Positions 220-34,233 of a stretch of DNA of 41,522 bases are shown piece by piece. The DNA is from a virus, in the IMG/VR virus record IMGVR_UViG_3300029477_000009; one strand, given 5' to 3'. The notes below the pieces were generated by a model. It was not told the DNA's origin, made no database searches, and saw only the letters and a list, made by a program, of their open reading frames with translations. The position numbers and the translations under genes are program-made. Positions within the stretch are counted from its first letter, which is position 1, and each line of letters starts with the position of its first letter.

Positions 220-3039
220 ATGGCGGATGGCTCTATCAGAATCGACGCTACTGTAAGCGACGAACAAGCGAAAAAGCAGATTGCACAAATGACGAAAGAC
301 ATTGAGAAGCAATCAGCCGCCGTAGATAAACAAGCCGCAAAGGTGCAAAAACTTGCTGATCAGTGGAACAAGGTAGCCGCTGGCGGCACGAAGGGCATTA
401 AAATGCAAGCCGACCTTGCAGCAACGGAGAAAGAAGCCGCACGTCTGGCTGCTCGGTTGGATGAAGTAAACGCTGAGATTGAAAAGGCTCAGAGCGATTA
501 CAACACCAAACTGAAACAGGCGACAACGGGCGCAATTCCACAGGAGGAATTCTCGGAATCAGCGCAAAAGCTGAATTCTCTTGTTGCTGAATCGGATAAA
601 CTGGGTGAAGCTCTGCGAAACGCAGATGATAAAGCGGCACAACTGAAACAACAGCTTTCCGAGATCAAGCAATCGTCCACGATGAGCAGCGCTGGTCAGA
701 ATGTACGGCAAAGCCTTGACAATGAGACGACGCAGTTAGAGAACATGAAGACTGGGCTGAAACAGTCCAAATCGGAAATGAACGACTTCGTAAGTCAAAC
801 GAATTCCAAAATGGCTAAACTGAAACGAGTTATTGCGAGTTTGGGCGTTGGCTTGAAAAACTCTGTCGGAAGTCTGCAAAATTCGCTCGGCGGCAAATTG
901 GGCGCAACGATTGACAAGCTCAAAGCCAAATTCTCCAATTTCGGACGTTCCAGCCAAAAGTCCATGAAGAAAGCAACGGGCGGCGTGCAGTCGTTCGGTG
1001 TGCGTCTGCGTTCTATCGTTGCGGGGGCGTTGTTCTTCAACTTGATTTCCAAAGCGCTTACGGCAATGGCTGACCGTTTGGGCAAGGTTATGCTTGCGAA
1101 CAAGACGTTTGCAAAGTCGTTCGGGCAGGTGAAAAGCAACCTGCTGACGGCGTTTCAGCCTATCTATGAATCTATCATTCCGTGGCTGAATAAGTTGATG
1201 CAGGCTCTTGCGCAGGTAACGGCACAGATGGCGCAGTTTATCGCGTCTGTGTTCGGTACGACTGCACAGCAGGCGCAGGAAAATACAAAGGAACTGAATG
1301 GGCAAGCGGATGCACTGGATTCCACGGCATCGTCTGCAAAGAAAGCCGAAAAAGCTCTTGCATCGTTCGATACAGTCCAGAAATTAACCAATAACAGCGA
1401 TAACACGACCGAACCGAGCGCACCTAAGTTTGATACGGATTATTCCGCAGCAAAAAATCAGACACCGCAATGGCTCACTGACTTTTGGAAAGTATTTCAG
1501 GATTCGTGGGCGCAGTACGGACAGCAGACTATTGAAAGCGCAAAGAACGCTCTTTCTGCGCTGAAAGACATGGTTTCCGCTATCGGTCAGTCGTTTATGG
1601 CAATCTGGACGAACGGAACCGGACTTGAAACGCTTAACAACATTCAACTGCTGCTGCAAACCATCTTCGATCTGATTACCGCCATTGCAACGGCATTTAC
1701 CAATGCGTGGAACACGAACAACACGGGCGAACAGATGTTGCAAGCAATTATGAACTTGCTGAACACGATCATTCAGATTATCACATCTATTGGTCAAGCG
1801 TTCATTGCGGCATGGAACGATGGTAACGCGGGTCAAATCATGCTGCAGGCTATCATGGCGGCGATTACGAATGTTGTTAGCTTTGTAAATTCCATCGGTC
1901 AGGCATTCCTAACGGCATGGAATGATGCTGGTTTGGGCGAAAGCATAATGGGACATATTATTTCCATCGTCACAAATATTGCAAACGCGATTGGCAATAT
2001 CGCACAGAGATTGCAGGAAGCATGGGAGAAGAACAACAACGGCGTGCAAATTTGGGAAGCCATTCTCGGTATTGTTGATTCTATCCTCGGATTTATTGAC
2101 CGAATCACGGAAGCTACTGCACAATGGGCGGCACATCTTAACTTTGAGCCGCTTATGGAATCTATCAAGAATATCCTGCAAGCAATCAAGAATCTTGCGG
2201 ATTCGCTCGGTGATGTACTGGGTGATTTGTACGAAAATGTTGTCCTTCCGATGCTGACGTGGGTAATCCAAACGGGGCTACCGGGTTTGGTTAACTTGCT
2301 TGCAAGTGTAATTCAGTTTTTAGCCAAACATAAGGAATTGCTTGTAGTTCTTACGGGTTTGGTTGTTAGCTTTATTGCTGCATTTAAGTTGGTTACGATT
2401 ATTCAGCAGTTCATCACTATGGCAGCGGCTATCGGAAAGGTTGTTGACGGAATTACTCCACTAACAGCCGCTTTGGCTCTTATAATCATGTTGACTGCTG
2501 GAATTATGGGTGCATGGAGCAATCTTACTCCTCTGGAACGTGCAACAACCGTTATTTACGGAATTGTTGCCGCTGTTGCTGCATTGGCTGTTGCACTTGG
2601 TGCATTAACCGGCGCAGCGGGTGCTATCGCGGCGGCTGCTGCATTGGCTATCGGCATTGGCATGGTGTATAAGAACATCAACGCTGCAAGCAAACGATCT
2701 GCATCGTCCACAAGAGCCTACAGTCTCGGCAATGCCGATCGACCTGTTGCGCTTTCTACGAGCGATATCCCCGTCCTTGCAAATGGTGCAGTTATCAGCC
2801 CGAACAGCGAATTTCTCGCGCTGCTGGGCGATCAGAAAAGCGGCGTGAACGTGGAAACCCCACTGTCCACCATGATTGATGCGTTTAACGCGGCACTTGA
2901 CGCACGCGGCGGCACCGGCAACAGCAGTCAGCCTATTGAGCTGTACATCGACGGCGCGAAGTTTGCACGCATTACCGGCCCGTACAACAGCGGTGAAACG
3001 CGGCGGCGCGGTGTGAGCCTTGTAACAGGAGGTGCATAA
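220..3039 (+). CDS. Tail tape measure protein
   Basis: 939 aa with an N-terminal coiled coil, internal ~35-aa repeats (..IGQAFxxAWNxxxxGxxMLQAIM..) and C-terminal Ala/Gly-rich hydrophobic segments. It lies between the chaperone genes and the distal tail genes. Confidence 0.9.
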   Translation: MADGSIRIDATVSDEQAKKQIAQMTKDIEKQSAAVDKQAAKVQKLADQWNKVAAGGTKGIKMQADLAATEKEAARLAARLDEVNAEIEKAQSDYNTKLKQATTGAIPQEEFSESAQKLNSLVAESDKLGEALRNADDKAAQLKQQLSEIKQSSTMSSAGQNVRQSLDNETTQLENMKTGLKQSKSEMNDFVSQTNSKMAKLKRVIASLGVGLKNSVGSLQNSLGGKLGATIDKLKAKFSNFGRSSQKSMKKATGGVQSFGVRLRSIVAGALFFNLISKALTAMADRLGKVMLANKTFAKSFGQVKSNLLTAFQPIYESIIPWLNKLMQALAQVTAQMAQFIASVFGTTAQQAQENTKELNGQADALDSTASSAKKAEKALASFDTVQKLTNNSDNTTEPSAPKFDTDYSAAKNQTPQWLTDFWKVFQDSWAQYGQQTIESAKNALSALKDMVSAIGQSFMAIWTNGTGLETLNNIQLLLQTIFDLITAIATAFTNAWNTNNTGEQMLQAIMNLLNTIIQIITSIGQAFIAAWNDGNAGQIMLQAIMAAITNVVSFVNSIGQAFLTAWNDAGLGESIMGHIISIVTNIANAIGNIAQRLQEAWEKNNNGVQIWEAILGIVDSILGFIDRITEATAQWAAHLNFEPLMESIKNILQAIKNLADSLGDVLGDLYENVVLPMLTWVIQTGLPGLVNLLASVIQFLAKHKELLVVLTGLVVSFIAAFKLVTIIQQFITMAAAIGKVVDGITPLTAALALIIMLTAGIMGAWSNLTPLERATTVIYGIVAAVAALAVALGALTGAAGAIAAAAALAIGIGMVYKNINAASKRSASSTRAYSLGNADRPVALSTSDIPVLANGAVISPNSEFLALLGDQKSGVNVETPLSTMIDAFNAALDARGGTGNSSQPIELYIDGAKFARITGPYNSGETRRRGVSLVTGGA

Positions 3040-3417
3040 ATGGAACTTACCGTAGACGGCAAGAAGTACAACGTCCTTGTTACAAGCCTTACCCGTAAAT
3101 TTCAGGTGCTTGACGGCAAGAACGCAGAGCGAACGCTCAGCGGCGCAATGATTCGCGACATTATCGGTACGTTTTACAACTACGAGATTACGATTCTTCC
3201 CGCAGTTGGCAAGTACGGCGACTACGATGCGCTGTACGAGGTTCTGAGTGCACCGCAGGACAGTCACAGAATTGTTGTTCCGTATGCACAGAGCACGCTT
3301 ACGTTTAACGCATATGTTACTGCTGGACAAGACAATCTCGTTCGCAAGAAACCCGGAGAAGCATACTGGACGGGGCTTTCCGTTCAGTTTATCGCAATGG
3401 CACCGCAAAGGACGTGA
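3040..3417 (+). CDS. Small distal-tail (Dit-like) protein
   Basis: 125 aa that starts 1 nt after the tape measure stop, which is the canonical Dit position. Confidence 0.55.
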   Translation: MELTVDGKKYNVLVTSLTRKFQVLDGKNAERTLSGAMIRDIIGTFYNYEITILPAVGKYGDYDALYEVLSAPQDSHRIVVPYAQSTLTFNAYVTAGQDNLVRKKPGEAYWTGLSVQFIAMAPQRT

Positions 3418-3420
3418 CAC

Positions 3421-5559
3421 ATGGGAACAAATAAAATTCTTTATCTGGATAAGGTGTTCACGGCAACAGATGTAAAGTCGGGGAATATGTATCAAGCACG
3501 TTCCCCGATTGCTGCATCACAGGAAATTGATACTTTTAGTTTCGATGTATACAGTGAAAACACCACATTAACCGAATTTATCCGCAACACGCCATTGACG
3601 TATTTCCATAATGATGAACAAATGGGAATCTACTATGTGCAGAAAATCAGTCGAAAGTCCATCAACACCTATCATTTCGCCTGTACTTCGACCGTTGGCC
3701 TGCTGGATGAAACCTACCACGACGGCGGTATCTATACCGGCGAAACCGTGCGCGAAGTTTGTACGGACATTTGCTCACCGCTGACCTGCTATGTTAAGTC
3801 CAACATTGCCAACATCAAACTTTACGGTTGGCTGCCTATTGCAACTCGGCGCGAAAACCTTGCGCAAGTGCTGTTTGCTGTCGGCGCAACGCTGAAAGTA
3901 GACTACAATGGTGCAATCCGTATCGAGGGCTTGTGGGACGGACAGTCGAGCGAAATCACCGCAAGCGAAATGTACGCGGGCGGCTCGGTGGAGTATGCAA
4001 CGCCTGTTACTGAGGTAATCGTAACCGAACACGCCTATTCGCAGAGCGCAACGGAAACGACAGAGCTTTTCAAGGGCACAACGTCGGCAGGCGACAAAAT
4101 CACCTTCGACGAACCGTGCTATGACCTCGCGGCATCTGGCTTTTCCATTCTTGCAAGCGGTGCAAATTGGGCAACGGTTTCGGCAGGTTCGGGCGCGCTG
4201 ACGGGCAAGAAGTACACGCACGTTACCCGGCAGGTAATGCAGCAGATTAAACCGAAAACACGCGAACTCGTTACGCAGTCCGACAATACGGTTAAGGTAG
4301 AGAACGCAACGCTCGTATCTCTCGTAAATGCAACGGCAGTCGCAGAACGCCTCGCTGAGTATTACAGCCACAACGAACGTATCAATTACAAAATCGCGGT
4401 TAAACGTGAAACCCCCGGTGATGTAGTGAAGATTGCGCATCCTTACGGCGGTACAGTCTCCGGCTGCATTGAAAGCGCGGATATCACGGTATCCGGCAAA
4501 CTTGCAGCAGAGGAAAGCGTGCTGATTGATTATTTCCCGCCGGATATTGGTGTGCAGGAATATTACGACACGGTAGAAGTCCTGACGCAGAACGGCACTT
4601 GGACTGTGCCGGAAAACGTGACCTCTGCGCGAATTGTGCTGATTGGCGGAGGGTCTGGCGGTTCAAGTGGATGTGAGGGCGAAGATGGCAAGAGTGTGCA
4701 CGGCGGCGGCGCAGGCGGCAAAGGCGGCGTGGCAGGCGCAGGTGGCGCGGGCGGAAAGGTTTACAGCGTTGAAATGGATGTTACGCCCGGAGCGAATTAC
4801 GCAGTGCAAATTGGTGCAGGCGGCAAAGGTGGCGTATATTCCGCAGACGGCAGCGTAGCCGGTACGTCTGGCGTGCAAACAAAGTTCGGCTCGCTATCCT
4901 CTGAAAACGGCTCATCTTCCGATATTGGTTTTGCAGACCCAGTCAATAACCAGTTTTACGCCCAAGCCGGAGACGATGGCATTAAGGGCGGAGATGGAGG
5001 CAACGGCGGCGAAGCAAACTATACAAGCGATGATAGCAAGGTTCGCGCAGGCAAAGACGGAGGAAACGCCCTCGGCTACGCAGGCGGCAAGGGTGCAAGC
5101 GGTAGCGCGGCTAAATACGACGGTCAGATTGGCGTTTCTGGCGGTGGCGGTGGCGGCGGCGCCGCTATGGGCAACGCGGGAGGAGATGGCAATACCGGAC
5201 GCTTGGAATGGACGAATTTCTCCCTTCCCGAGCATACCGGTCAAGGATGGCTCGCAAAAGGCGGCGCAGGCGGCTCTGGCGGTAACGCAACTATCATTCC
5301 GAACACGCCTACCATGCTCGGCAGTGGCGGCGGTGGCGGTCACGGAGGCGGCGGCGGAGGCGGCGGCGGATTGACGCAAGCTGTGTCCACGTGGAGCCAT
5401 TCCGGCGGCAGCGGTGGTTCCGGCTCTTCCGGCGGCGACGGTGCGCCCGGCTGCGTGCTCATCTATTACCGTGTATACCGTGCAAGCTCTTCCGGACGGT
5501 TTGTCACTCGTGACGGCAAAGGCTTTAATGAGAAATTCACAAGAAAGGTTGTGGTTTAA
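3421..5559 (+). CDS. Tail tip / tail-associated protein with extreme glycine-rich C-terminal domain
   Basis: 712 aa in the Tal position. The C-terminal ~280 aa carries GGGSGGSSG, GGGAGGKGGVAGAGGAGG, GGGGGGAAMGNAGGDGN and GGGGGHGGGGGGGGG runs. Confidence 0.7.
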   Translation: MGTNKILYLDKVFTATDVKSGNMYQARSPIAASQEIDTFSFDVYSENTTLTEFIRNTPLTYFHNDEQMGIYYVQKISRKSINTYHFACTSTVGLLDETYHDGGIYTGETVREVCTDICSPLTCYVKSNIANIKLYGWLPIATRRENLAQVLFAVGATLKVDYNGAIRIEGLWDGQSSEITASEMYAGGSVEYATPVTEVIVTEHAYSQSATETTELFKGTTSAGDKITFDEPCYDLAASGFSILASGANWATVSAGSGALTGKKYTHVTRQVMQQIKPKTRELVTQSDNTVKVENATLVSLVNATAVAERLAEYYSHNERINYKIAVKRETPGDVVKIAHPYGGTVSGCIESADITVSGKLAAEESVLIDYFPPDIGVQEYYDTVEVLTQNGTWTVPENVTSARIVLIGGGSGGSSGCEGEDGKSVHGGGAGGKGGVAGAGGAGGKVYSVEMDVTPGANYAVQIGAGGKGGVYSADGSVAGTSGVQTKFGSLSSENGSSSDIGFADPVNNQFYAQAGDDGIKGGDGGNGGEANYTSDDSKVRAGKDGGNALGYAGGKGASGSAAKYDGQIGVSGGGGGGGAAMGNAGGDGNTGRLEWTNFSLPEHTGQGWLAKGGAGGSGGNATIIPNTPTMLGSGGGGGHGGGGGGGGGLTQAVSTWSHSGGSGGSGSSGGDGAPGCVLIYYRVYRASSSGRFVTRDGKGFNEKFTRKVVV

Positions 5560-6653
5560 TGCCTGATACTTATATATCACAGTTTAGCGGCGAAGAAATT
5601 GACTCTGCGCTGAGAGCGGCGCAGATTATCTCCGGCGCGGATACGCCTGCTGAACTGCGAAAAAAGCTCGAAATTCGAGGCGATACCATTCCGGTCAGCG
5701 CGACAGACCCCACGCCTGTTTCCGAAGCACTGACAGCATCCGGCGGCGGTGTCAACCCCAATTTGCTTGACAACTGGTACTTCGGCAGACCCGTGAACCA
5801 GAGAGGGCAGACGGAATGGGCGTCCTCTGCGAGTGCCTATGTTCCGTGCGTAGACAGATGGAATTGGTGGGGGCAGTATGCAGCCGGTTCAACCCTGAAA
5901 CTTCTGGATGATGGACTGCAACTTATCGGGGAACCTAACGTAGCAGGACTTTATCAGCATATCTCACAGAAGATTGAAAAGGATAGGTTGCCTATAGGAG
6001 CAGCCGTTACACTATCTGCTCTTGTCAAGTCGGAGTCTGATGCCTCAATTATTCTTAGTATAGACGGCAAAAACTATACGACTGTAGCAGTTCAAGCGAA
6101 TGTCTGGGAGTTAATTACTTACACGCTCAATGCTCCAAGTGTCGAGCAGACTTATGACATAAGTATTCAGCGGAATACAGCTGGCACAACTTTTACTGTT
6201 AAAGCCGCCAAGCTCGAACTCGGCGACACGCAGACCCTTGCGCACAAAGAGGGCGACAAGTGGGTGCTGAATGAAATTCCGGATTTTGGGGAGCAGCTGA
6301 GGAGATGCACGTACTATGCAGAGAAGGTTGAGAGTAAAGATACACCCGCAATCACAAACTCTACGTTTGTTCCTTCCGGTGCTACAAGTGCAGTATTCAT
6401 TCTCCCTTATGCAAGGAAACGTACAGTACCAGCAATCAATTTTAACGATGTAAGTAACTATCGAATTATCGCACGAACTATTTCTGGTGGAACTACTGCA
6501 TTTTCTGTAACAGCTATATCACTTTTAGACATTGGTAGAACAAAAGCAGCTATTCTCGTGTCTTTTAACACAACTGATCAAGGCTATTACTGTTTCTTGC
6601 AGCGTTCTGATAACGCAGCCGCCGGGTATGCCTTTATTTCCGCCGACCTTTAA
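5559..6653 (+). CDS. Tail fibre / receptor-binding protein
   Basis: 364 aa with an ATGA overlap onto the previous gene. It has the NLLDNWYFGRPVNQRG and KLELGDT motifs typical of Firmicutes phage fibres, and its C-terminal half is AT-richer. Confidence 0.6.
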   Translation: MPDTYISQFSGEEIDSALRAAQIISGADTPAELRKKLEIRGDTIPVSATDPTPVSEALTASGGGVNPNLLDNWYFGRPVNQRGQTEWASSASAYVPCVDRWNWWGQYAAGSTLKLLDDGLQLIGEPNVAGLYQHISQKIEKDRLPIGAAVTLSALVKSESDASIILSIDGKNYTTVAVQANVWELITYTLNAPSVEQTYDISIQRNTAGTTFTVKAAKLELGDTQTLAHKEGDKWVLNEIPDFGEQLRRCTYYAEKVESKDTPAITNSTFVPSGATSAVFILPYARKRTVPAINFNDVSNYRIIARTISGGTTAFSVTAISLLDIGRTKAAILVSFNTTDQGYYCFLQRSDNAAAGYAFISADL

Positions 6654-9992: not shown

Positions 9993-10751
9993 ATGAGTGA
10001 CGATTCGATGGCTCTGGGTTATGCACTGGGGCAGGACAGCAACAACAACGGCGGCGGCAATGACGGCATGTGGGGCGGCAACGGCTCGTGGATTTTTGCG
10101 TTTCTGATCATCGCGCTGATCTTCGGCGGCAACGGCTGGGGCTTCGGCGGCAACAACGGCGCGGGCTATCAGGGCGCGGTAACGCGCAGCGACCTGTGCA
10201 GCGAGTTCAACTTCAACAACCTGTCTCGTTCCGTTCTCGGCATTCAGAACGGCCTGTGCGACGGCTTTTACAGCACGAACAACGGCATGCTCACCGGCTT
10301 CAACACGCTCGGCAACAATGTGTCTAACGGCTTCCACGGCGTAGACAACGCGATTTGTCAGCTCGGCTACCAGACGGCACAGCTTGCAAACAACACGGTT
10401 CAGAACATGAACACCGGTTTTAACGGCGTGACCGCCGGTCTGACGGCACTCGGCACGCAGATGTCCGGCTGCTGCTGCGACACCCAGAGACAGATGGAAC
10501 GCGGTTTCTGCGACATCAACTACAATGCCGCTACCAACGCACGCGACATTATCCAGACGGCGCACAACGACACCGACCGCATTATCGCACGCCTCGACCA
10601 GATGGAGAACACCCGTCAGCAGGAGAAGATCGCGGCGCTCCAGAACGAGAATCAGGCCTTGAAGTTCGCGGCTTCGCAGGAGGCACAGAACAATTACCTT
10701 GTAAACGCTCTGCGTTTTTCCGGTTGCGGCTGCAACACCTGCGGCTGCTGA
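9993..10751 (+). CDS. Gly/Asn-rich membrane protein with coiled coil and C-terminal Cys cluster
   Basis: RBS aaaaggag. TM segment WIFAFLIIALIF, GGN repeats, a CCC at MSGCCCDTQ, a heptad region IIARLDQMENTRQQEKIAALQNENQALK, and a tail SGCGCNTCGC. Confidence 0.6.
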   Translation: MSDDSMALGYALGQDSNNNGGGNDGMWGGNGSWIFAFLIIALIFGGNGWGFGGNNGAGYQGAVTRSDLCSEFNFNNLSRSVLGIQNGLCDGFYSTNNGMLTGFNTLGNNVSNGFHGVDNAICQLGYQTAQLANNTVQNMNTGFNGVTAGLTALGTQMSGCCCDTQRQMERGFCDINYNAATNARDIIQTAHNDTDRIIARLDQMENTRQQEKIAALQNENQALKFAASQEAQNNYLVNALRFSGCGCNTCGC

Positions 10752-29272: not shown

Positions 29273-29529
29273 AAGTAATGAAGAAGATGATCGAGGAAGG
29301 CAGACCGGAAGACGCGCCGGATGCGTGGCAGGAGCGCAGAAAGCGCGAGTACCGCGAGACCAAGGACCGGTACGAGAGGCTGCACTGGATGGTTACCAAG
29401 TACGAGGCGGGCGTGCTTGAGTATACGCCGAAGTGCTCGATCGAGCTGTTAAAACAGCAGAAAAAGCACATGGGCGAGTACCTGCACGATCTGGAAGTCG
29501 GCGCATTTGTGGAAGGGGTGGAACTGTGA
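29266..29529 (+). CDS. Hypothetical protein
   Basis: MLKVMKKMIEEGRPEDAPDAWQERRKREYRETKDRYERLHWMVTKYE.. Confidence 0.5.
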   Translation: MLKVMKKMIEEGRPEDAPDAWQERRKREYRETKDRYERLHWMVTKYEAGVLEYTPKCSIELLKQQKKHMGEYLHDLEVGAFVEGVEL

Positions 29530-29699
29530 CGATTAACCAGGCAATCCGCATCCTCGACCCGGCAACGACAGCCGAGGCCTTGGGCGAGATCGAATACTAC
29601 GGCGGTCTGCATGGCAGAGAGAAGATGGTCGCTGCGTGTGACGAGGCCTGCCGCATGGCGGTTCAGATTATGAGAAAATACATGGAGGAACAAAAATGA
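29526..29699 (+). CDS. Hypothetical small protein
   Basis: GTG start overlapping the previous stop; 57 aa. Confidence 0.4.
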   Translation: MTINQAIRILDPATTAEALGEIEYYGGLHGREKMVAACDEACRMAVQIMRKYMEEQK

Positions 29700-30085
29700 A
29701 AAAGAAAATCATGGCGGCACTGCTCTGCGGTGCTATGATGTGTAGTCTGTCGGCCTGCAGGGAGAGCGAGCGCGTTGCGTACAACATCTCGAAGGAGGCG
29801 GACAATTTCAACGTCACGCGCCGTCTGGAAGTCATCAACGCGCGTACGGACAAGCCGGTGTTTGAGCTGATCGGCAACTTCGCCATCTCGAACAACAGCG
29901 AGAACGAGCTGGAGGTGACTGTCGAGACCGGCCAGGGCGTTTACAAGAAACACCTTGTGTACCTCAACGACTGGACGATCTACGTTGTGGAGGACGTCAG
30001 CGGAGCTTACGTGGACAAGTTCCACTACGAGGTGAATTTCCTGCCGGAGATGATCATTCCGGTTACGGTGACATCGCATGACTAA
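29696..30085 (+). CDS. Lipoprotein
   Basis: Signal peptide MKKKIMAALLCGAMMCSLSAC with the lipobox LSAC. Confidence 0.7.
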   Translation: MKKKIMAALLCGAMMCSLSACRESERVAYNISKEADNFNVTRRLEVINARTDKPVFELIGNFAISNNSENELEVTVETGQGVYKKHLVYLNDWTIYVVEDVSGAYVDKFHYEVNFLPEMIIPVTVTSHD

Positions 30086-30326
30086 AAATACAGCGACAAG
30101 GTCCGGCGTTACTTATTATGGTGATACGCCGTGCCGGAACTGCGCTTACTGGCGGACGCTCGGCAACTATAAAAATCTGAAGCTGTGGGCGTGCCACTAC
30201 GCATTAGTAAACCGGCATTCGAGGGGATGCGAGCCGGGCGAAAGGTGCACAAAAAGAACAGAAAGCTACCGCAGACGGATAGCTTTCAAGCACGATGGAA
30301 GCACCGAGGAGATTACAAGTCGATGA
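30078..30326 (+). CDS. Cys-rich small protein
   Basis: CRNCAYW..WACHY..RGCEPGERC; 82 aa. Confidence 0.45.
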   Translation: MTKNTATRSGVTYYGDTPCRNCAYWRTLGNYKNLKLWACHYALVNRHSRGCEPGERCTKRTESYRRRIAFKHDGSTEEITSR

Positions 30327-30736
30327 CAGCGAAAGAATGGCTAATGCGCGGGCGCGCACTGGAAAAGACGATTACAGCCTTGCAGGAGGCGCGGAAACGC
30401 GCCTATGCACGGGCAACGGGCGCAACCGCGCCGGTAAGGGACACGCCGGGCGGAAAAGGGAGCACGGGGAACAAGGCAGACCCCTACATCGAACTGGGCG
30501 AGAAGATCGCAGAGAAGGAAAACGAGCTTGCGGAGATATACGGCGAGATTGTGCGCGTGCTGGGCGAAATGCGGGATAATGAGCTGCAAACGCTCCTGCT
30601 TGAACGTTACGTGAACGGCGCAACATGGGCACAGGCGGCGCGGCGGCTGCATTACAGCGAGGCGCACGTGAAGGGCTACATGCACAGAATGGCACTGAAT
30701 GCTGTGGATAAGTTAATACCCCACAATACGCAATAA
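30323..30736 (+). CDS. Sigma-like late gene activator (DUF1492/ArpU/RinA-type)
   Basis: Starts at the internal ATG MTAKEWLMRG. ELQTLLLERYVNGATWAQAARRLHYSEAHVKGYMHRMAL is a sigma r4-like HTH. It is the last gene before the packaging region. Confidence 0.65.
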   Translation: MTAKEWLMRGRALEKTITALQEARKRAYARATGATAPVRDTPGGKGSTGNKADPYIELGEKIAEKENELAEIYGEIVRVLGEMRDNELQTLLLERYVNGATWAQAARRLHYSEAHVKGYMHRMALNAVDKLIPHNTQ

Positions 30737-31468
30737 TGTGATATACTGATATCGTGGAAGAGCTCCAAGGGAGCAAAACCACGGCATTCACGGGTTGATA
30801 AATTCCGGTTTTATGTCCTCCTAATTCTCTCCCCTGCTTCGGCGGGGACACGCTCCAAAGGCTGCACGAGGCCGGCGGGGCTCACACTTCCTTTCGCCCA
30901 AGGCATTCCCTAATGAGGCGGGAAACCGTCTCAGCCTGTCCGCCGCGTCCGCACGAGGGCGCGCGGGCTCTTTGACTCTCGGGAATACAGTTCAAGGAAA
31001 CGCGGCAGAGATGCCGCACATGCTCCAAAGCCTGCATGAGGGCGGCGGGGCAAAAAAAGACAGCCGGACAGGCTGCCCATAATCTGACGGCGTGGAAAGA
31101 CACGCAACGGCGCAGCTTACGGAACGGCTGCCTCCTATTCTGACAGCCCGGAAAGACGGACACCAGCAAGGCAAGGCTATGCTTGACAGCCCGGAAAGAC
31201 GGGCAGTTTCCGAACTCCTGCCGGGGCTGCTGCAACAGCTCGGCGGGCGCGGTACGCTTGCAGGCGATGCCGCCGGGGTCGCGCCCCGCTGTAACCAGTC
31301 AGCCGGAAAACAAACCGATAGTAATTGTGACACGCCGGAGAGCGACGGCGCACAGCCCAGAACGAGAGGGCGGCGGATGCACGCCAACGGATCGCGAGAG
31401 CCGAAAAGCTGCATACATGCGGATAAAAAACAAGATCAACAAAAGAGAGGTGAAACACTCCTTCTCTT
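30737..31468 (+). ncRNA. Candidate large structured ncRNA (ORF-free, hairpin-dense tract)
   Basis: No ORF here has an RBS. The tract contains duplicated hairpin modules at 30831-80 and 31002-50, UUCG/GAGA tetraloops on the + strand, and three GAAAGA-loop hairpins with compensatory changes. Confidence 0.45.
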
Positions 31469-31478
31469 ATACATTCCG

Positions 31479-31487
31479 TGGTATATT
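31479..31487 (+). promoter_or_regulatory. Extended -10 promoter TGgTATATT
   Basis: TG-n-TATATT at 31479-87. The -35 region is poor. Confidence 0.4.
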
Positions 31488-31493
31488 GTCTTA

Positions 31494-31690
31494 TTTTGTA
31501 GCATGCCCGCATGAAAGAAGCTGGGAGACCATCGGTGAAAGCCCGACGTTCGCGCGGCGACAAGCGCACATACCCCGAAAGGGGTATACATGCAGCCGAA
31601 AGTTGATACGCGGTGCAATCCCGCGTGGCTGCACCTCCAATTGTCATAAGTAAAAGCACCTCCCCGGGATGGCTTCGGGAAGGTGCTTTT
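31494..31690 (+). ncRNA. Candidate ~200-nt structured RNA ending at a strong terminator
   Basis: ATACCCC-GAAA-GGGGTAT at 31570-87. Nested GCAGCC..CGCGG-tgcaatc-CCGCG..GGCTGC at 31592-632. Terminator at 31652-90. Confidence 0.45.
31652..31690. terminator. Bidirectional rho-independent terminator
   Basis: AAAAGCACCTCCCCG-ggatggctt-CGGGAAGGTGCTTTT. It has an A-run upstream and a T-run downstream, and lies between the + RNA and the - gene 31715-31876. Confidence 0.8.
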
Positions 31691-31719
31691 GCTTAGATGT
31701 TGCTTAGATGTTGCTTAGC
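31690..31719. repeat. 11-bp tandem repeat TGCTTAGATGT x2.7
   Basis: tgcttagatgt tgcttagatgt tgcttagc. It contains the stop codon of the minus-strand gene. Confidence 0.85.
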
Positions 31720-31876
31720 GGTTATCATAAGCGCATAGAGCCTCGCACAGCTCGCGCGTCGGGCACTGAGAGCAGTCGCACTCCGAAATGATAACGTTTT
31801 CGCACAGTGCGCGAGGATCGGCCATAAAAACGGCCTCGGCTGCTCGGTAGTCCTCAGGGGTAATGATGTTATACAT
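31715..31876 (-). CDS. Small Cys-rich protein (53 aa), the only minus-strand gene in the late half
   Basis: RBS ggaggcgtaaccc lies before the ATG. MYNIITPEDYRAAEAVFMADPRALCENVIISECDCSQCPTRELCEALCAYDNR. Confidence 0.5.
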   Translation of the reverse strand: MYNIITPEDYRAAEAVFMADPRALCENVIISECDCSQCPTRELCEALCAYDNR

Positions 31877-32100
31877 GGGTTACGCCTCCAGCCGGTAGAA
31901 CATCGCGCCGTTAAGCAGTGCGAAAGTGATGCAAGCGGTGTTCGCCTGCCGGTAGACTATAAGCTGTTCGGCAGAACGTTCGATGGTATTGATTATCGGT
32001 TCTTGAAGCCGATCAAGGAGAATTTCCCGAGGGATTACGAAAAGATCATCACATGGTTCCCGCTGGCGGAACTGGAGTTATTCAGGAGGGGTGAGCTGTA

Positions 32101-32184
32101 ATGGGATATTGGAACGACAACGAAGTTAAGGAAACAAAAGATGATCACATTGAATTAGAGCAGCTCGAAAGCGAGCCTCGATGA
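32101..32184 (+). CDS. 27-aa ORF, probably the 5' part of 32219-32470
   Basis: RBS caggagggg. MGYWNDNEVKETKDDHIELEQLESEPR. The next frame continues ..LDELGDVEKSFRERMGAENK. Confidence 0.35.
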   Translation: MGYWNDNEVKETKDDHIELEQLESEPR

Positions 32185-32218
32185 GCTGGGAGATGTAGAA
32201 AAGAGTTTCCGTGAGCGC

Positions 32219-32470
32219 ATGGGCGCTGAGAATAAGCGATTTAAGGATATGTGCGACACCGAATATTGGTGCTGCATCTGCTTCACCAGCCGTGCGCAGA
32301 AGGAGGAATTTTTGGAGTCTCTGGAGTTTGACGGCGATTTGAAGTATATCGAAGGAAAAGAATTCGCGCGAGCGGTGAAAAGACCGGTTAAAACCGAGGA
32401 TTTGCGGTTTGCGCGTATCGGCAAAGGCTCAAAAGAATACTTGGGCAGGCTCATAGATGAGCAAAAATGA
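32219..32470 (+). CDS. Hypothetical protein upstream of the terminase
   Basis: 83 aa containing DTEYWCCICFTSRAQKEEFLESL. There is no SD before its ATG, and the frame is open upstream to 32156. Confidence 0.5.
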   Translation: MGAENKRFKDMCDTEYWCCICFTSRAQKEEFLESLEFDGDLKYIEGKEFARAVKRPVKTEDLRFARIGKGSKEYLGRLIDEQK

Positions 32471-32489
32471 CGGAGAGGAGGTGTAAAGC

Positions 32490-32612
32490 GTGGGTGCTGG
32501 TTATGGTAGCGGCAGGCTTGCCAATTTCGGCAGAACCAGAAATCGCCGCCGCAGTGTTGCGGTAGGCCGTCGCGCTGCTGGCGCTCGTGGCGCTCGTTCG
32601 CCCTCGACCTAA
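32490..32612 (+). CDS. Possible 40-aa Arg-rich basic peptide
   Basis: A GTG 8 nt after GGAGAGGAGG. GAGYGSGRLANFGRTRNRRRSVAVGRRAAGARGARSPST. Confidence 0.3.
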   Translation: MGAGYGSGRLANFGRTRNRRRSVAVGRRAAGARGARSPST

Positions 32613-32690
32613 ACACCAAAACTCAAAAGTCCAACGGTTGGGAAATGATTCTCAGCCGGTTTTCTTTTGGGGAAAGAAAGGAGGTAGCGC

Positions 32691-33002
32691 ATGGGACGGA
32701 AAAAGAAAGTGATTGACCTCAAAGCGGTGCAAGAGCTTGCAAGTGAGGGCAATACACAAGAAGAAATTGCAAAGGCTTTGGACTTTTCACGATCGACGTT
32801 CAGTAACCGCGACGATGTAACCGAAGCATACTATAAGGGCGTAGCAGAAATGAAGCTCAGCTTGCGCCATTGGCAGTTTAACGCTGCTCGTGGCGGTAAC
32901 ATCCAGATGCTTATCTGGTTGGGCAAGCAGTACCTCGGACAGCGTGACACAGTAGAGAAAAAAATCGAAAGCGAAGGCGTGAAGGTGATTATCGATGTCT
33001 GA
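32691..33002 (+). CDS. terS: Terminase small subunit
   Basis: RBS aaaggagg. The N-terminal HTH is NTQEEIAKALDFSRSTF, followed by IWLGKQYLGQRD. It lies directly before terL. Confidence 0.75.
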   Translation: MGRKKKVIDLKAVQELASEGNTQEEIAKALDFSRSTFSNRDDVTEAYYKGVAEMKLSLRHWQFNAARGGNIQMLIWLGKQYLGQRDTVEKKIESEGVKVIIDV

Positions 33003-34233
33003 GGTGAAGCTCTCGCAGATCATCGGACCGGCATTTTACGCCGTTGCGCACGATGTGTTTGCACATGGTCACACGCATTACGATGAGAGCGGCGGCCGTG
33101 GCTCGCTGAAATCGTCGTTTGTGTCGATTGTCGTTCCGCTGCTGCTTATCCACAACCCCGGAACGCATGCGCTTGTGTTACGCAAGGTTGGAAACACCAT
33201 CCGCGATAGTGTATACGCACAGTATGTATGGGCACTTGGTGAGCTGGGTATGGCTGACTACTGGGAAGCAAAGGTATCGCCGATGGAGCTGATATATCGC
33301 CCGACCGGACAGAAAATCATGTTTCGCGGCGCTGATGACCCGATGAAGATCAAGTCAATCAAGGTTCCGTTTGGTTATATTGCTGTTACGCATTTCGAGG
33401 AGAAAGACCAGTTCGCAGGACGCGCGGAAATCCGAACGATCTTGCAGTCCACAATGCGCGGCGGTGATAAGTATTGGAACTTTGAGAGTTATAACCCTCC
33501 GATCAGCCGCGACAACTGGGCGAACAAGGACAGTTTAGAAGAACGCCCTGACCGTCTCTGCCACCGCAGCACGTACCTTGAAGCGCCGCGCGAGTGGTTA
33601 GGCGATCAGTTTATTTATGAGGCGGAGCACCTAAAACTGACGAACGAACGAGCGTATCAGCATGAATACCTCGGCATTCCGGTTGGCACGGGTGGCAATG
33701 TCTTTGAAAACCTTGAACTGCGAGAAATCACAGATGATGAGGTGGCAACGTTCGATCGTATCTATCAAGGCGCTGACTGGGGATGGTTCCCCGACCCGTT
33801 CGCTTTTATCCGCGTCCACTACGACAGAGCGCGTGAGACGGTGTATTTTATCGATGAGATATACAAAAACAAGCTGAGTAACGAGGAAAGCGCCGGTATT
33901 ATCATGGAGCGCGGCTATAATGATACGTTTATCACCTGCGACAGTGCAGAGCCAAAAAGCGTTGCAGACTACCGCGCTATGCGACTGCCTGCCAAAGAGG
34001 CCGTGAAGGGTCCCGGCAGCGTCGAGTACGGCATGAAGTGGCTACAGCGCAGGACACTTGTCATCGACCGCAAGCGAACGCCGCACGCCTATGATGAGTT
34101 TGTGAACTATGAGTATGAGCGCGACAAGGACGGCGAGATCATCAGCGGCTATCCAGATGAAAAGAACCATCTGATTGACGCCACGAGATACGCCCTTGAG
34201 CGCGTTTACAGAAGAATGGGAGTGATTGCTTGA
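32995..34233 (+). CDS. terL: Terminase large subunit (PBSX/XtmB type)
   Basis: The Walker A-like motif is ESGGRGSLKSS, with a nuclease half downstream. 412 aa. Confidence 0.9.
   Translation: MSEVKLSQIIGPAFYAVAHDVFAHGHTHYDESGGRGSLKSSFVSIVVPLLLIHNPGTHALVLRKVGNTIRDSVYAQYVWALGELGMADYWEAKVSPMELIYRPTGQKIMFRGADDPMKIKSIKVPFGYIAVTHFEEKDQFAGRAEIRTILQSTMRGGDKYWNFESYNPPISRDNWANKDSLEERPDRLCHRSTYLEAPREWLGDQFIYEAEHLKLTNERAYQHEYLGIPVGTGGNVFENLELREITDDEVATFDRIYQGADWGWFPDPFAFIRVHYDRARETVYFIDEIYKNKLSNEESAGIIMERGYNDTFITCDSAEPKSVADYRAMRLPAKEAVKGPGSVEYGMKWLQRRTLVIDRKRTPHAYDEFVNYEYERDKDGEIISGYPDEKNHLIDATRYALERVYRRMGVIA

Follow-up and report, generated by a model that had tools for sequence, protein, structure and literature searches.

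The subject of this analysis is a stretch of viral DNA of 41,522 nucleotides (nt), IMG/VR record IMGVR_UViG_3300029477_000009 (the window), and within it a segment of about 200 nt at 31479-31690, which had been singled out from its letters alone as a self-contained structured RNA element. It is probable that these 200 nt are the 3'-terminal domain and the terminator of a non-coding RNA gene of ~940 nt, which would extend from ~30754 to 31694 on the + strand. The predicted RNA is 0.8-1.2 kb long in relatives and is carried by about a hundred gut-phage contigs. Its 3' domain is a genuine RNA structure: the claim of the original prediction that a structured non-coding RNA element lies on the + strand is borne out by covariation, and all the motifs which it named are present where it had placed them.

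The RNA is filed here as a putative new family among the large structured non-coding RNAs of phages, with no Rfam match and no similar GenBank phage DNA. The Rfam 15 search at gathering score covered the window and seven other loci and gave no match. When the threshold was relaxed to E <= 10 (window 30600-32300 and locus L082 8550-9850), nothing but noise of the miRNA, snoRNA and CopA type was obtained, on the terminator palindrome. No match was found by blastn of 30700-31900 against GenBank phages, ARAGORN reported 0 tRNA or tmRNA genes in the window, and the open reading frames (ORFs) on both strands of the RNA region matched no family. A likeness by eye of GGUGAAAGUCC and CCCCGCUGUAA to motifs of cobalamin riboswitches or RNase P, and of GUCGCGCCCCGC to the repeat of type I-C CRISPR, was considered and rejected, as Rfam lent it no support and the hairpins formed locally are different. 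The Rfam comparison which had been proposed together with the element thus returned no known riboswitch, and the doubt then expressed about a classical riboswitch or attenuator was justified, as there is no Rfam match and the sequence downstream is swapped between relatives and often antisense. No description of the RNA was found in the literature searched; fragments of it may be among the 10,006 unnamed candidates of an IMG/VR survey of structured RNAs (PMC10690425).

Covariation in the 3' domain

Homologues were collected in two ways: relatives of the regulator gene that precedes the RNA gave 23 loci in IMG/VR, and the 17-mer CCAAAGNCTGCATGAGG, taken from repeat module 3 of the RNA, gave >117 further IMG/VR stretches. 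The contigs are IMG/VR viral contigs carrying terminase, portal and tail genes. By blastn, the block 31488-31696 behaves as a discrete mosaic unit of ~85-93% identity, whose left flank (31163-31488) is swapped in most loci and whose right flank is swapped in several. Diverged copies of the 3' domain were found by nhmmer in loci with the repeats, always on the same strand and roughly 450-900 nt downstream of them. Five groups can be distinguished, namely clade A (window-like), A', the type of loci L029, L067 and L064, a large clade B and a mini version; A' (L010, L027) has its 5' half in common with clade A and different sequences in the nested stem and the terminator.

When the clades were mixed in one alignment (MAFFT and RNAalifold), helix fragments alone were recovered. 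Because of the register shifts in that alignment, a covariance model of seven helices and 41 pairs (model R1) was seeded on clade B alone. It matched 67 loci over the full length with 69-256 bits, and in the window it recognised 31501-31697 (79.3 bits, E = 6e-22); its matches on the reverse strand were confined to the palindromic terminator. No match was given by Blautia phage Montmirail, MT835625, L022 or L023. Among 63 distinct homologues, to which the counts below refer, 97.0% of cells hold standard pairs in an alignment fitted to the model's structure, compared with 77.4% in shuffles (0/500 as high). Both sides vary in 26 of the 41 pairs, the covariation score is 0.461 against 0.115, and pairing falls to 28-49% when the 3' partners are slid by 1-3 columns. 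Compensatory variants are evident in the raw sequence as well. The features of the domain, all on the + strand, are as follows.

31522-31531, + strand: hairpin H1, UGG-GAGA-CCA, 3 bp with a GNRA loop
31532-31546, + strand: hairpin H2, UCGG-UGAAAGC-CCGA, with a 7-nt T-loop-like loop
31552-31567, + strand: hairpin H3, GCGC-GGCGACAA-GCGC
31570-31587, + strand: hairpin H4, AUACCCC-GAAA-GGGGUAU
31592-31632, + strand: stem H5 enclosing hairpin H6, GCAGCC/GGCUGC around CGCGG-UGCAAUC-CCGCG
31633-31651, + strand: clade-specific linker ACCUCCAAUUGUCAUAAGUAAAA, holding the first CACCUCC (31632-31638)
31652-31694, + strand: H7, predicted intrinsic terminator, stem 31652-31668/31674-31690 with AUGGC in the loop, then UUUUGCUU

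The domain is thus made up of two GNRA-capped hairpins, two T-loop-like hairpins (one of them nested in a stem) and a 21-bp terminator hairpin. The GNRA hairpins expected from the single sequence are H1, with its GAGA loop, and H4, with its GAAA loop. H1 occurs in five compensatory variants, all of which keep a GNRA loop (UGG-GAGA-CCA, CGG-GAAA-CCG, GGA-GGAA-UCC, UGA-GAGA-UCA and GGC-GCAA-GCC). The base of H4, CAUACC/GGUAU, is near-invariant and its distal pair covaries (UA 42, CG 11, GC 9), with GAAA, GCAA, CUGU, GCAG or AUGA as the loop. H2 is paired in 100% of cells, and two of its four pairs vary on both sides; the hairpins which had been described as having CGG-UGAAAG-CCG type loops do exist, but the loop is better described as a 7-nt T-loop-like one. 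In H3 the inner three pairs are near-invariant, with one non-pair in the whole set; at the outer position AU, GC and GU pairs occur, and 14 sequences have no pair.

The nested structure which had been noticed at 31592-31632 (GCAGCC...CGCGG-UGCAAUC-CCGCG-U-GGCUGC), next to AUACCCC-GAAA-GGGGUAU at 31570-31587, corresponds to H5 and H6. All six pairs of H5 vary on both sides, the forms being GCAGCC/GGCUGC, CCCCC/GGGGG, GGGGC/GCCCU and CGGUUU/AAACCG. H6, which resembles a T-arm (5 bp and a 7-nt loop UGCRAnn), is paired in 99.7% of cells and varies on both sides in three of its five pairs; one of its internal pairs is G-U in 23 of the 63 sequences, which supports the + strand. The linker that follows is replaced in other clades by AAACAGUCGUAWAAUGG, UUACAUYUCCAAAAGACA or AAACAUCUUUUCAUACCUCUU.

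The domain ends in the long inverted repeat 31652-31690, followed by TTTTGCTT. Here the strong, potentially bidirectional terminator of the original prediction was recovered as the end of the element: the predicted energy of the hairpin alone is -29.2 kcal/mol for the + strand and -26.3 kcal/mol for the - strand, and an A-run before the stem would make it usable from the - strand too. All 11 modelled pairs of H7 vary on both sides, and the stem differs wholly between clades while the loop core AUGGC is kept, in the versions UUAUGGCUUU (39 sequences), GGAUGGCUU (12) and GGGAUGGCUUC (5). A simple terminator scanner did not list the 31652-31690 hairpin, probably because of an internal C/A mismatch. 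As a kissing partner for the AUGGC loop, CCAUC at 31530-31534 was considered; it is complementary, but it is lost in other clades and was dropped. The 206-nt stretch as a whole has a folding energy of -81.7 kcal/mol (z = -4.0; 0/200 shuffles as good), and its minus strand folds with similar energy, as can be expected of hairpins.

The predicted full-length RNA and its setting

In none of the loci examined did the 3' domain occur apart from the upstream RNA, and the view that it forms a self-contained unit of ~200 nt is not supported: a conserved putative promoter lies ~740 nt upstream, and the domain always trails an upstream hairpin array on the same strand. The features of the upstream part are given below.

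30739-30747, + strand: predicted extended -10 promoter TGaTATACT, 3 nt past the regulator stop codon, with a predicted start near 30753-30756
30753-30783, + strand: 5'-terminal hairpin CGUGG...GCUCC-AAG-GGAGC...CCACG
30852-30881, + strand: repeat module 1, GCUCC-AAA-GGC-UGCACGAG-GCC-GGC-GGGGC
30939-30968, + strand: repeat module 2, degenerate, with loop CGCACGAG and inner stem GUC/GGC
31022-31051, + strand: repeat module 3, GCUCC-AAA-GCC-UGCAUGAG-GGC-GGC-GGGGC
31085-31106, 31141-31162 and 31184-31205, + strand: three hairpins with GGAAAGA loops, direct-repeat family D1
31225-31420, + strand: central core conserved across clades in alignments, GGGGUCGCNCCCCGCUGUAACC...CAGCCGGAAAACAAACCGAUAG...GAGAGCCGA
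31443-31468, + strand: hairpin AGAGAGG...CUUCUCU directly before the 3' domain, containing GAGGUG (31447-31452), complementary to CACCUC

At the place of the promoter other clades have TGGTATAAT, TGCTATAAT or TGTTATAAT, followed by GATATCGTG. In 64 loci, with 43 distinct sequences, TGnTAWAMT and after it GATATYGTG precede the end of the terminator by 817-1205 nt. The stem of the 5'-terminal hairpin covaries between clades (CGUGG/CCACG, CGUGAU/AUCACG), and the hairpin is present in the minimum-free-energy and centroid folds of the whole RNA, for which -394 kcal/mol (z = -4.8) was calculated in the window. The interval can be aligned end to end across clades.

The repeat modules share one plan: an outer stem, an AAA internal loop, an inner stem and the loop UGCRYGAG, which usually contains the self-complementary UGCA or CAUG. 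Two to five copies occur per locus, spaced roughly 94-108 bp apart. Among 61 distinct module variants the inner stems (GCC/GGC, GGC/GCC, GUC/GGC) as well as the outer stems (GCUCC/GGAGC, GCCCG/CGGGU, GCCGC/GCGGC) covary; module 2 of the window retains 3/3 inner pairs and 2/5 outer pairs in fixed register. In a hand tally of these variants G-U pairs (~65) exceed A-C (~12), which indicates an RNA on the + strand. Stems of the GGAAAGA hairpins likewise vary between copies and loci (CGUG/CACG, CCCG/CGGG, GUCCG/CGGAC, GCUCG/CGAGC). The central core is shortened in most clade-A relatives. The hairpin at 31443-31468 is absent from most clade-A relatives as well; clade B has GAGGU-AAU-ACCUC as its counterpart, and L029 has GGAGGU-CAUU-ACCUCU. 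A mini version of ~290 nt was recognised by eye and folding at L022 2444-2742; it comprises a promoter-like box TGcTATTAT and a single UGCAUGAG module, and even here the module is joined to an H4-like hairpin (AUACCCC-GAAA-GGGGUA), an H6-like T-loop hairpin with GGUGCAA and a terminator. A regulator 42% identical to that of the window lies upstream.

The interval 30737-31714 of the window is ~1 kb without a convincing gene, with the flagged element at its end. Neither strand has a conserved reading frame; the open frames of close relatives vary in frame, position and length, and the relatives differ by 1- and 2-nt indels, all of which indicates that the region is non-coding. A protein gene of 160 amino acids (aa) on the minus strand (ORF 31177-31659) is extremely improbable. 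A GGAGGTG stands 9 nt before its in-frame ATG at 31646, as a Shine-Dalgarno (SD) sequence would, but this GGAGGTG lies inside the terminator stem, where it is the opposite strand of the terminator-arm CACCTCC; in addition, the ORF has no family match, and its frame is not conserved in the relatives, which differ by 1-2 nt indels, so that it is probably spurious.

The same region could be imagined as a DNA-level element which is not read as RNA, such as a pac or cos region bound by the small terminase, a set of regulator operators or a replication origin. It lies upstream of the terminase genes, as do the cos and pac sites of many Firmicutes phages, and its modules recur at a roughly regular distance. 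This explanation is nevertheless very improbable. Conserved loops on covarying stems are the reverse of what is expected of protein-bound half-sites, and G-U pairs exceed A-C in the modules; the loops are of the GNRA and T-loop-like types, the region is framed by a predicted promoter and terminator, and variable cargo of up to ~2 kb intervenes before the small terminase gene terS.

The gene order around the RNA, namely regulator, RNA, variable cargo and terminase, is kept in 93 of 94 loci. The regulator (183 aa, 30185-30736) is assigned to PHROG 36 'transcriptional regulator' with E = 2.8e-15 and, weakly, to sigma-70 region 4; in a Pfam scan at E <= 0.1, sigma-70 region 4, helix-turn-helix families and a faint Phage_antitermQ were the only matches. 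In the same 93 loci it shares the strand of the RNA and is separated from the first module downstream by 123-237 nt; its relatives are found in Oscillospirales and Ruminococcus gut phages. The RNA is not a general companion of the regulator family: two distant homologues have no such RNA and are directly followed by an HNH gene. After another distant homologue (28% identity), in Streptococcus phage Javan630 (L170), ~600 nt at 3469-4064 have no annotated gene. Two genes upstream of the regulator, window 29696-30085 encodes a 129-aa protein with a lipoprotein-like N-terminus and the Pfam domain Phage_VG64 (PF25682, E = 1.7e-46).

The RNA is followed by an antisense ORF of 53 aa, by what is left of a larger gene and by two small ORFs; next come a small-terminase-like gene (32691-33002) and terL, the gene of the large terminase (32995-34233), whose product has its closest named relative in Blautia phage Montmirail (57% identity). 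The large terminase gene is co-oriented with the RNA in 35 of 35 loci and is of two unrelated types. The sole match in a bacterial genome is a metagenome-assembled bin labelled Coprococcus eutactus. Both flanks of 31488-31696 and the downstream cargo are swapped between relatives, many genomes have 0.2-2 kb of convergent genes after the terminator, and in clade B the terminator is followed by the small ORF and terS without an intervening gene.

Several details of this cargo can be added. An 11-nt tandem repeat TTGCTTAGATG at 31689-31721, in two full copies and a partial third, separates the terminator from the stop codon of the antisense ORF; the copy number of 2 to ~5 in close relatives (highest in L034) suggests slippage. 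The 53-aa ORF itself (31715-31876, - strand, CDCSQCPTRELCEALC) is Cys-rich, has no Pfam or PHROG match and recurs unchanged in L001, at the head of a longer convergent cassette (L001 5393-6421). At 31957-32101 the C-terminal remnant (...KLFGRTFDGIDYRFLKPIKENFPRDYEKIITWFPLAELELFRRGEL) of a 235-aa ORF is found, which is intact in L001 (6797-7504) and L029 and which may be PAPS-reductase-like; of the cargo that lay between the RNA and the packaging genes, little is left in the window phage. At 32490-32612 there is an arginine-rich 40-aa ORF (MGAGYGSGRLANFGRTRNRRRSVAVGRRAAGARGARSPST) with a strong SD sequence GGAGAGGAGGTG and a counterpart in L082 at ~9999-10106; this peptide could be an RNA- or DNA-binding candidate. 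A hairpin with a T-run is located at 32635-32668, directly before the SD sequence of terS.

CACCUCC motifs and the -10-like box

According to the original prediction, an independent small RNA of ~200 nt would start near 31494 and pair through its two CACCUCC motifs, as a mimic of the anti-SD sequence of 16S rRNA, with the GGAGGUG SD sequences of phage or host mRNAs. This possibility is now regarded as improbable. There are 19 copies of CACCTCC in the window, only three of them on the + strand, and two of these three are found here, at 31632-31638 and 31657-31663. The 16 minus-strand copies correspond to GGAGGTG on the + strand (against ~3 expected for both strands together), in keeping with the usual SD sequence of the phage; it was correctly stated that GGAGGTG-type SD sequences are common in it, and just for that reason the complementarity between CACCUCC and GGAGGUG is trivial. 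The mechanism as such has precedents, since RsaE and RoxS are Firmicutes small RNAs whose C-rich seed motifs target SD regions.

The linker copy of the motif is probably single-stranded, as had been supposed. In the single-sequence fold CUCC (31635-31638) and GGAG (31524-31527) form a helix P1, which was rejected because GGGAGA covaries as a GNRA hairpin of its own, H1; with GGGAGA occupied, the linker is left free. The terminator-arm copy is base-paired in a stem of -29 kcal/mol. Distribution of the motifs is decisive for the anti-SD reading: ACCUCC in the linker is limited to clade A (about 17 of the 63 distinct sequences), and the remaining 46 keep all seven helices with other linkers and with terminator arms devoid of CACCUCC, which is found in the arm of 15 sequences. 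The motifs are therefore lost from otherwise conserved homologues, an outcome that had been named in advance as evidence against the mimic. Judging by this comparison, pairing of the clade-A linker with SD sequences may take place but cannot be a conserved function, and the CACCUCC motifs are lineage-specific linker and terminator-arm sequence outside the functional core. Moreover, GAGGUG at 31447-31452 is a possible partner within the same RNA, and the domain was always accompanied by the upstream RNA in the loci examined.

The proposed start of the small RNA is no better conserved.

31479-31487, + strand: TGgTATATT, -10-like, not conserved, in the window, L003 and L027 only

Most homologues lack this box, other clades have unrelated sequence at its position, and a promoter scan listed nothing there, so the extended -10 promoter assigned to it was not upheld. 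In the window phage it may act as a weak internal promoter, adjoining as it does the recombination boundary at 31488.

Another C-rich motif has a wider distribution. CCUCC is conserved in every clade ~60-95 nt into the RNA (window 30817-30821). The window RNA contains CCUCC four times (30817-30821, 31131-31135, 31634-31638, 31659-31663) and GGAGG not once; in clade B the 5' CCUCC apparently pairs locally with GGAG (CGGAG-UUUCGUU-CUCCG), as judged by eye. Compared with RsaE and RoxS, the clade-A copies have an unpaired ACCUCC beside the terminator and all clades have CCUCC near the 5' end, but the 3' motif is not conserved, the RNA is ~1 kb instead of 70-200 nt and there is no Rfam match.

Possible roles in the late region and likeness to known RNAs

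The predicted sigma-A-type promoter, the two-way terminator, the 5' and 3' hairpins, the position in a recombination hot-spot and the regulator homologues that lack the RNA together lead us to infer an autonomous gene of a stable RNA. Host RNA polymerase would transcribe it as a promoter-gene-terminator unit of its own, an 'RNA moron', in the accessory hot-spot that lies past the late regulator and ahead of the packaging genes. Stability would come from the 5' hairpin and the terminator hairpin, and the terminator would also insulate the convergent cargo genes. With its variable copy number, the hairpin array would form a multivalent platform, to which a protein partner binds or through which the RNA associates with itself, and for the 3' domain we envisage a compact tertiary module. 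That identical hairpins vary in number favours such a platform over one rigid fold. Somewhat under half of our belief is placed on a trans-acting scaffold or decoy role of this kind, which is part of the broader reading of the segment as the end of a long RNA.

Several points weigh against this reading. The promoter at 30739-30747, the 5' end and the termination are deduced from sequence, and a promoter scanner run on 29500-33500 found no two-hexamer promoter, although its silence at 30739-30747 is explained by the fact that an extended -10 without a -35 falls outside its rule. The alignment used for the pair count favours the structure to which it was fitted, and the strand asymmetry of the 3' domain is weak (G-U 65, A-C 45). 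The copy number of two to five modules and the shortened core argue against a single rigid global fold. The mosaic boundary at 31488 with the adjoining -10-like box means that the 3' domain could also be made alone. No binding partner emerged from the analysis. Finally, the place of the RNA, after a late regulator and before terminase genes of the same orientation, would suit a cis-acting leader just as well.

Such a leader of the late operon is rather unlikely, yet it has to be taken seriously. Transcription from the constitutive promoter after the regulator would stop at the 31652-31690 terminator until the polymerase is made terminator-resistant, either by the RNA (as with put, EAR and conAn2, the RNA of the conAn system) or by the regulator (as with lambda Q at PR'/tR'), and would then read through the cargo into terS and terL. 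Regulator, promoter, structured RNA, strong terminator and co-oriented packaging genes are combined in every locus; the arrangement in clade B, where no gene intervenes before the small ORF and terS, and the second hairpin directly before terS count in its favour. Lambda bor is an earlier case of antisense cargo carried inside a late transcript. Against it, 0.2-2 kb of convergent genes follow a terminator which looks bidirectional, the downstream + strand genes of L001 start past a divergent intergenic gap (6422-6512) and may have their own promoter there, and distant regulator homologues work without such an RNA. No conserved pairing alternative to the terminator was found; complementarities of 5-6 nt seen by eye (GAGGUG 31447-31452 with CACCUC, and GUGAG with CUCAC in clade B) have too few independent variants. 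The 5' and 3' hairpins and the variable number of modules would suit a stable trans-acting RNA better. The regulator has a faint sub-threshold similarity to Phage_antitermQ (E = 0.085), but its 13.2 bits are far under the 26-bit cut-off of the Q family, and the ConAn1 domain PF17362 was not found in it by the Pfam scan, so it is not taken for a Q or ConAn1 homologue.

Among the antitermination RNAs, conAn and the HK022 put and EAR elements were compared. The conAn system consists of a protein gene followed by an antiterminator RNA of 260-600 nt at the head of a long operon on Gram-positive conjugative plasmids, and its ConAn1 domain is Pfam pXO2-34, PF17362 (PMC8191782); it is thus a precedent for the leader in Gram-positive mobile elements. 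Shared with it are a regulatory protein gene, then a large structured non-coding region, the head of a terminator-containing operon and the occurrence in mobile elements of Firmicutes. The RNA described here differs in its predicted own promoter and strong bidirectional terminator, in being two to four times longer and in the convergent genes that often follow. The lambda PR'-6S-tR' arrangement is similar in having a constitutive-looking promoter right after the late regulator gene and a terminated non-coding transcript before co-oriented late genes. Lambda 6S RNA is reportedly 194 nt long, with no conserved fold known to be needed, whereas the present RNA would be ~1 kb with a conserved covarying structure and its regulator is not a recognisable Q protein.

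For the autonomous RNA gene the nearest likeness is to GOLLD and ROOL. These large 'ornate' non-coding RNAs of phages and prophages are Rfam families and have been studied by cryo-electron microscopy (PMC12286853). The RNA resembles them in being a GC-rich, many-helix RNA of Firmicutes phages, 0.8-1.2 kb long and predicted to be its own transcription unit, with strongly covarying helices, with tertiary motifs of the GNRA and T-loop types and, like theirs, a function not known so far; with 817-1205 nt it also reaches the size of such RNAs (>500 nt, covarying helices, phage-encoded). Their covariance models gave no match even at E <= 10 on the window and the full clade-B RNA, and the RNA differs from them in its array of two to five copies, in the core shortened in some relatives and in its fixed place beside a late-regulator gene. 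GOLLD and ROOL often adjoin tRNAs, and tRNA genes are present at the equivalent locus of the cultured, experimentally tractable Blautia phage Montmirail (L145, ON453898). At 2500-3050 of that phage a regulator gene is followed by TGCTATAAT and ~450 nt with only tiny hypothetical ORFs, then a tRNA-Asn and later a tRNA-Ile ahead of the terminase gene, a layout which suggests a slot for stable RNAs.

A further likeness concerns the T-arm of tRNA. H6 has 5 bp closed by G-C and a 7-nt loop UGCRAnn and is nested in the 6-7 bp of H5, so that H5 and H6 (7 + 5 bp) resemble the acceptor/T-arm stack of tmRNA and tRNA-like structures, followed in clade A by A-CCUCCA. The acceptor/T-arm minihelix is a module of tRNA, tmRNA and tRNA-like structures. 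The differences are that loop position 2 is G and not U, that in several clades H6 and H5 are set apart by 1-3 unpaired bases and that the ACC-like tail is clade-specific.

It is possible, though on balance doubtful, that the RNA represents an undescribed class of kilobase 'ornate' RNAs in at least about 100 contigs of phages of human-gut Clostridia, which would assemble with itself or act as a multivalent decoy or scaffold, timing the late genes or blunting host defence. Such a role would arise from the hairpin array and the double-T-loop 3' domain together. The partner would be a host or phage factor, with the sigma-like late regulator encoded next to the RNA and the tRNA-binding machinery, reached by way of the T-arm-like minihelix, as candidates.

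As for the meaning of these results, the interpretation of the element as a mimic of the 16S anti-SD sequence, attractive but wrong, is corrected. If the RNA were a cis-acting antitermination leader, RNA-based processive antitermination, which to our knowledge is so far limited to HK022 put, EAR and conAn, would be extended to the late switch of a Firmicutes phage. Few large elaborate non-coding RNAs of phages are known, such as GOLLD and ROOL, and their recent structures have revealed unexpected RNA-only assemblies. The RNA described here would add to them a family abundant in human-gut phages with a fixed genomic partner, the sigma-like late regulator, and its natural variants with one to five modules, together with the minimal form of ~290 nt, would constitute a ready-made deletion series.

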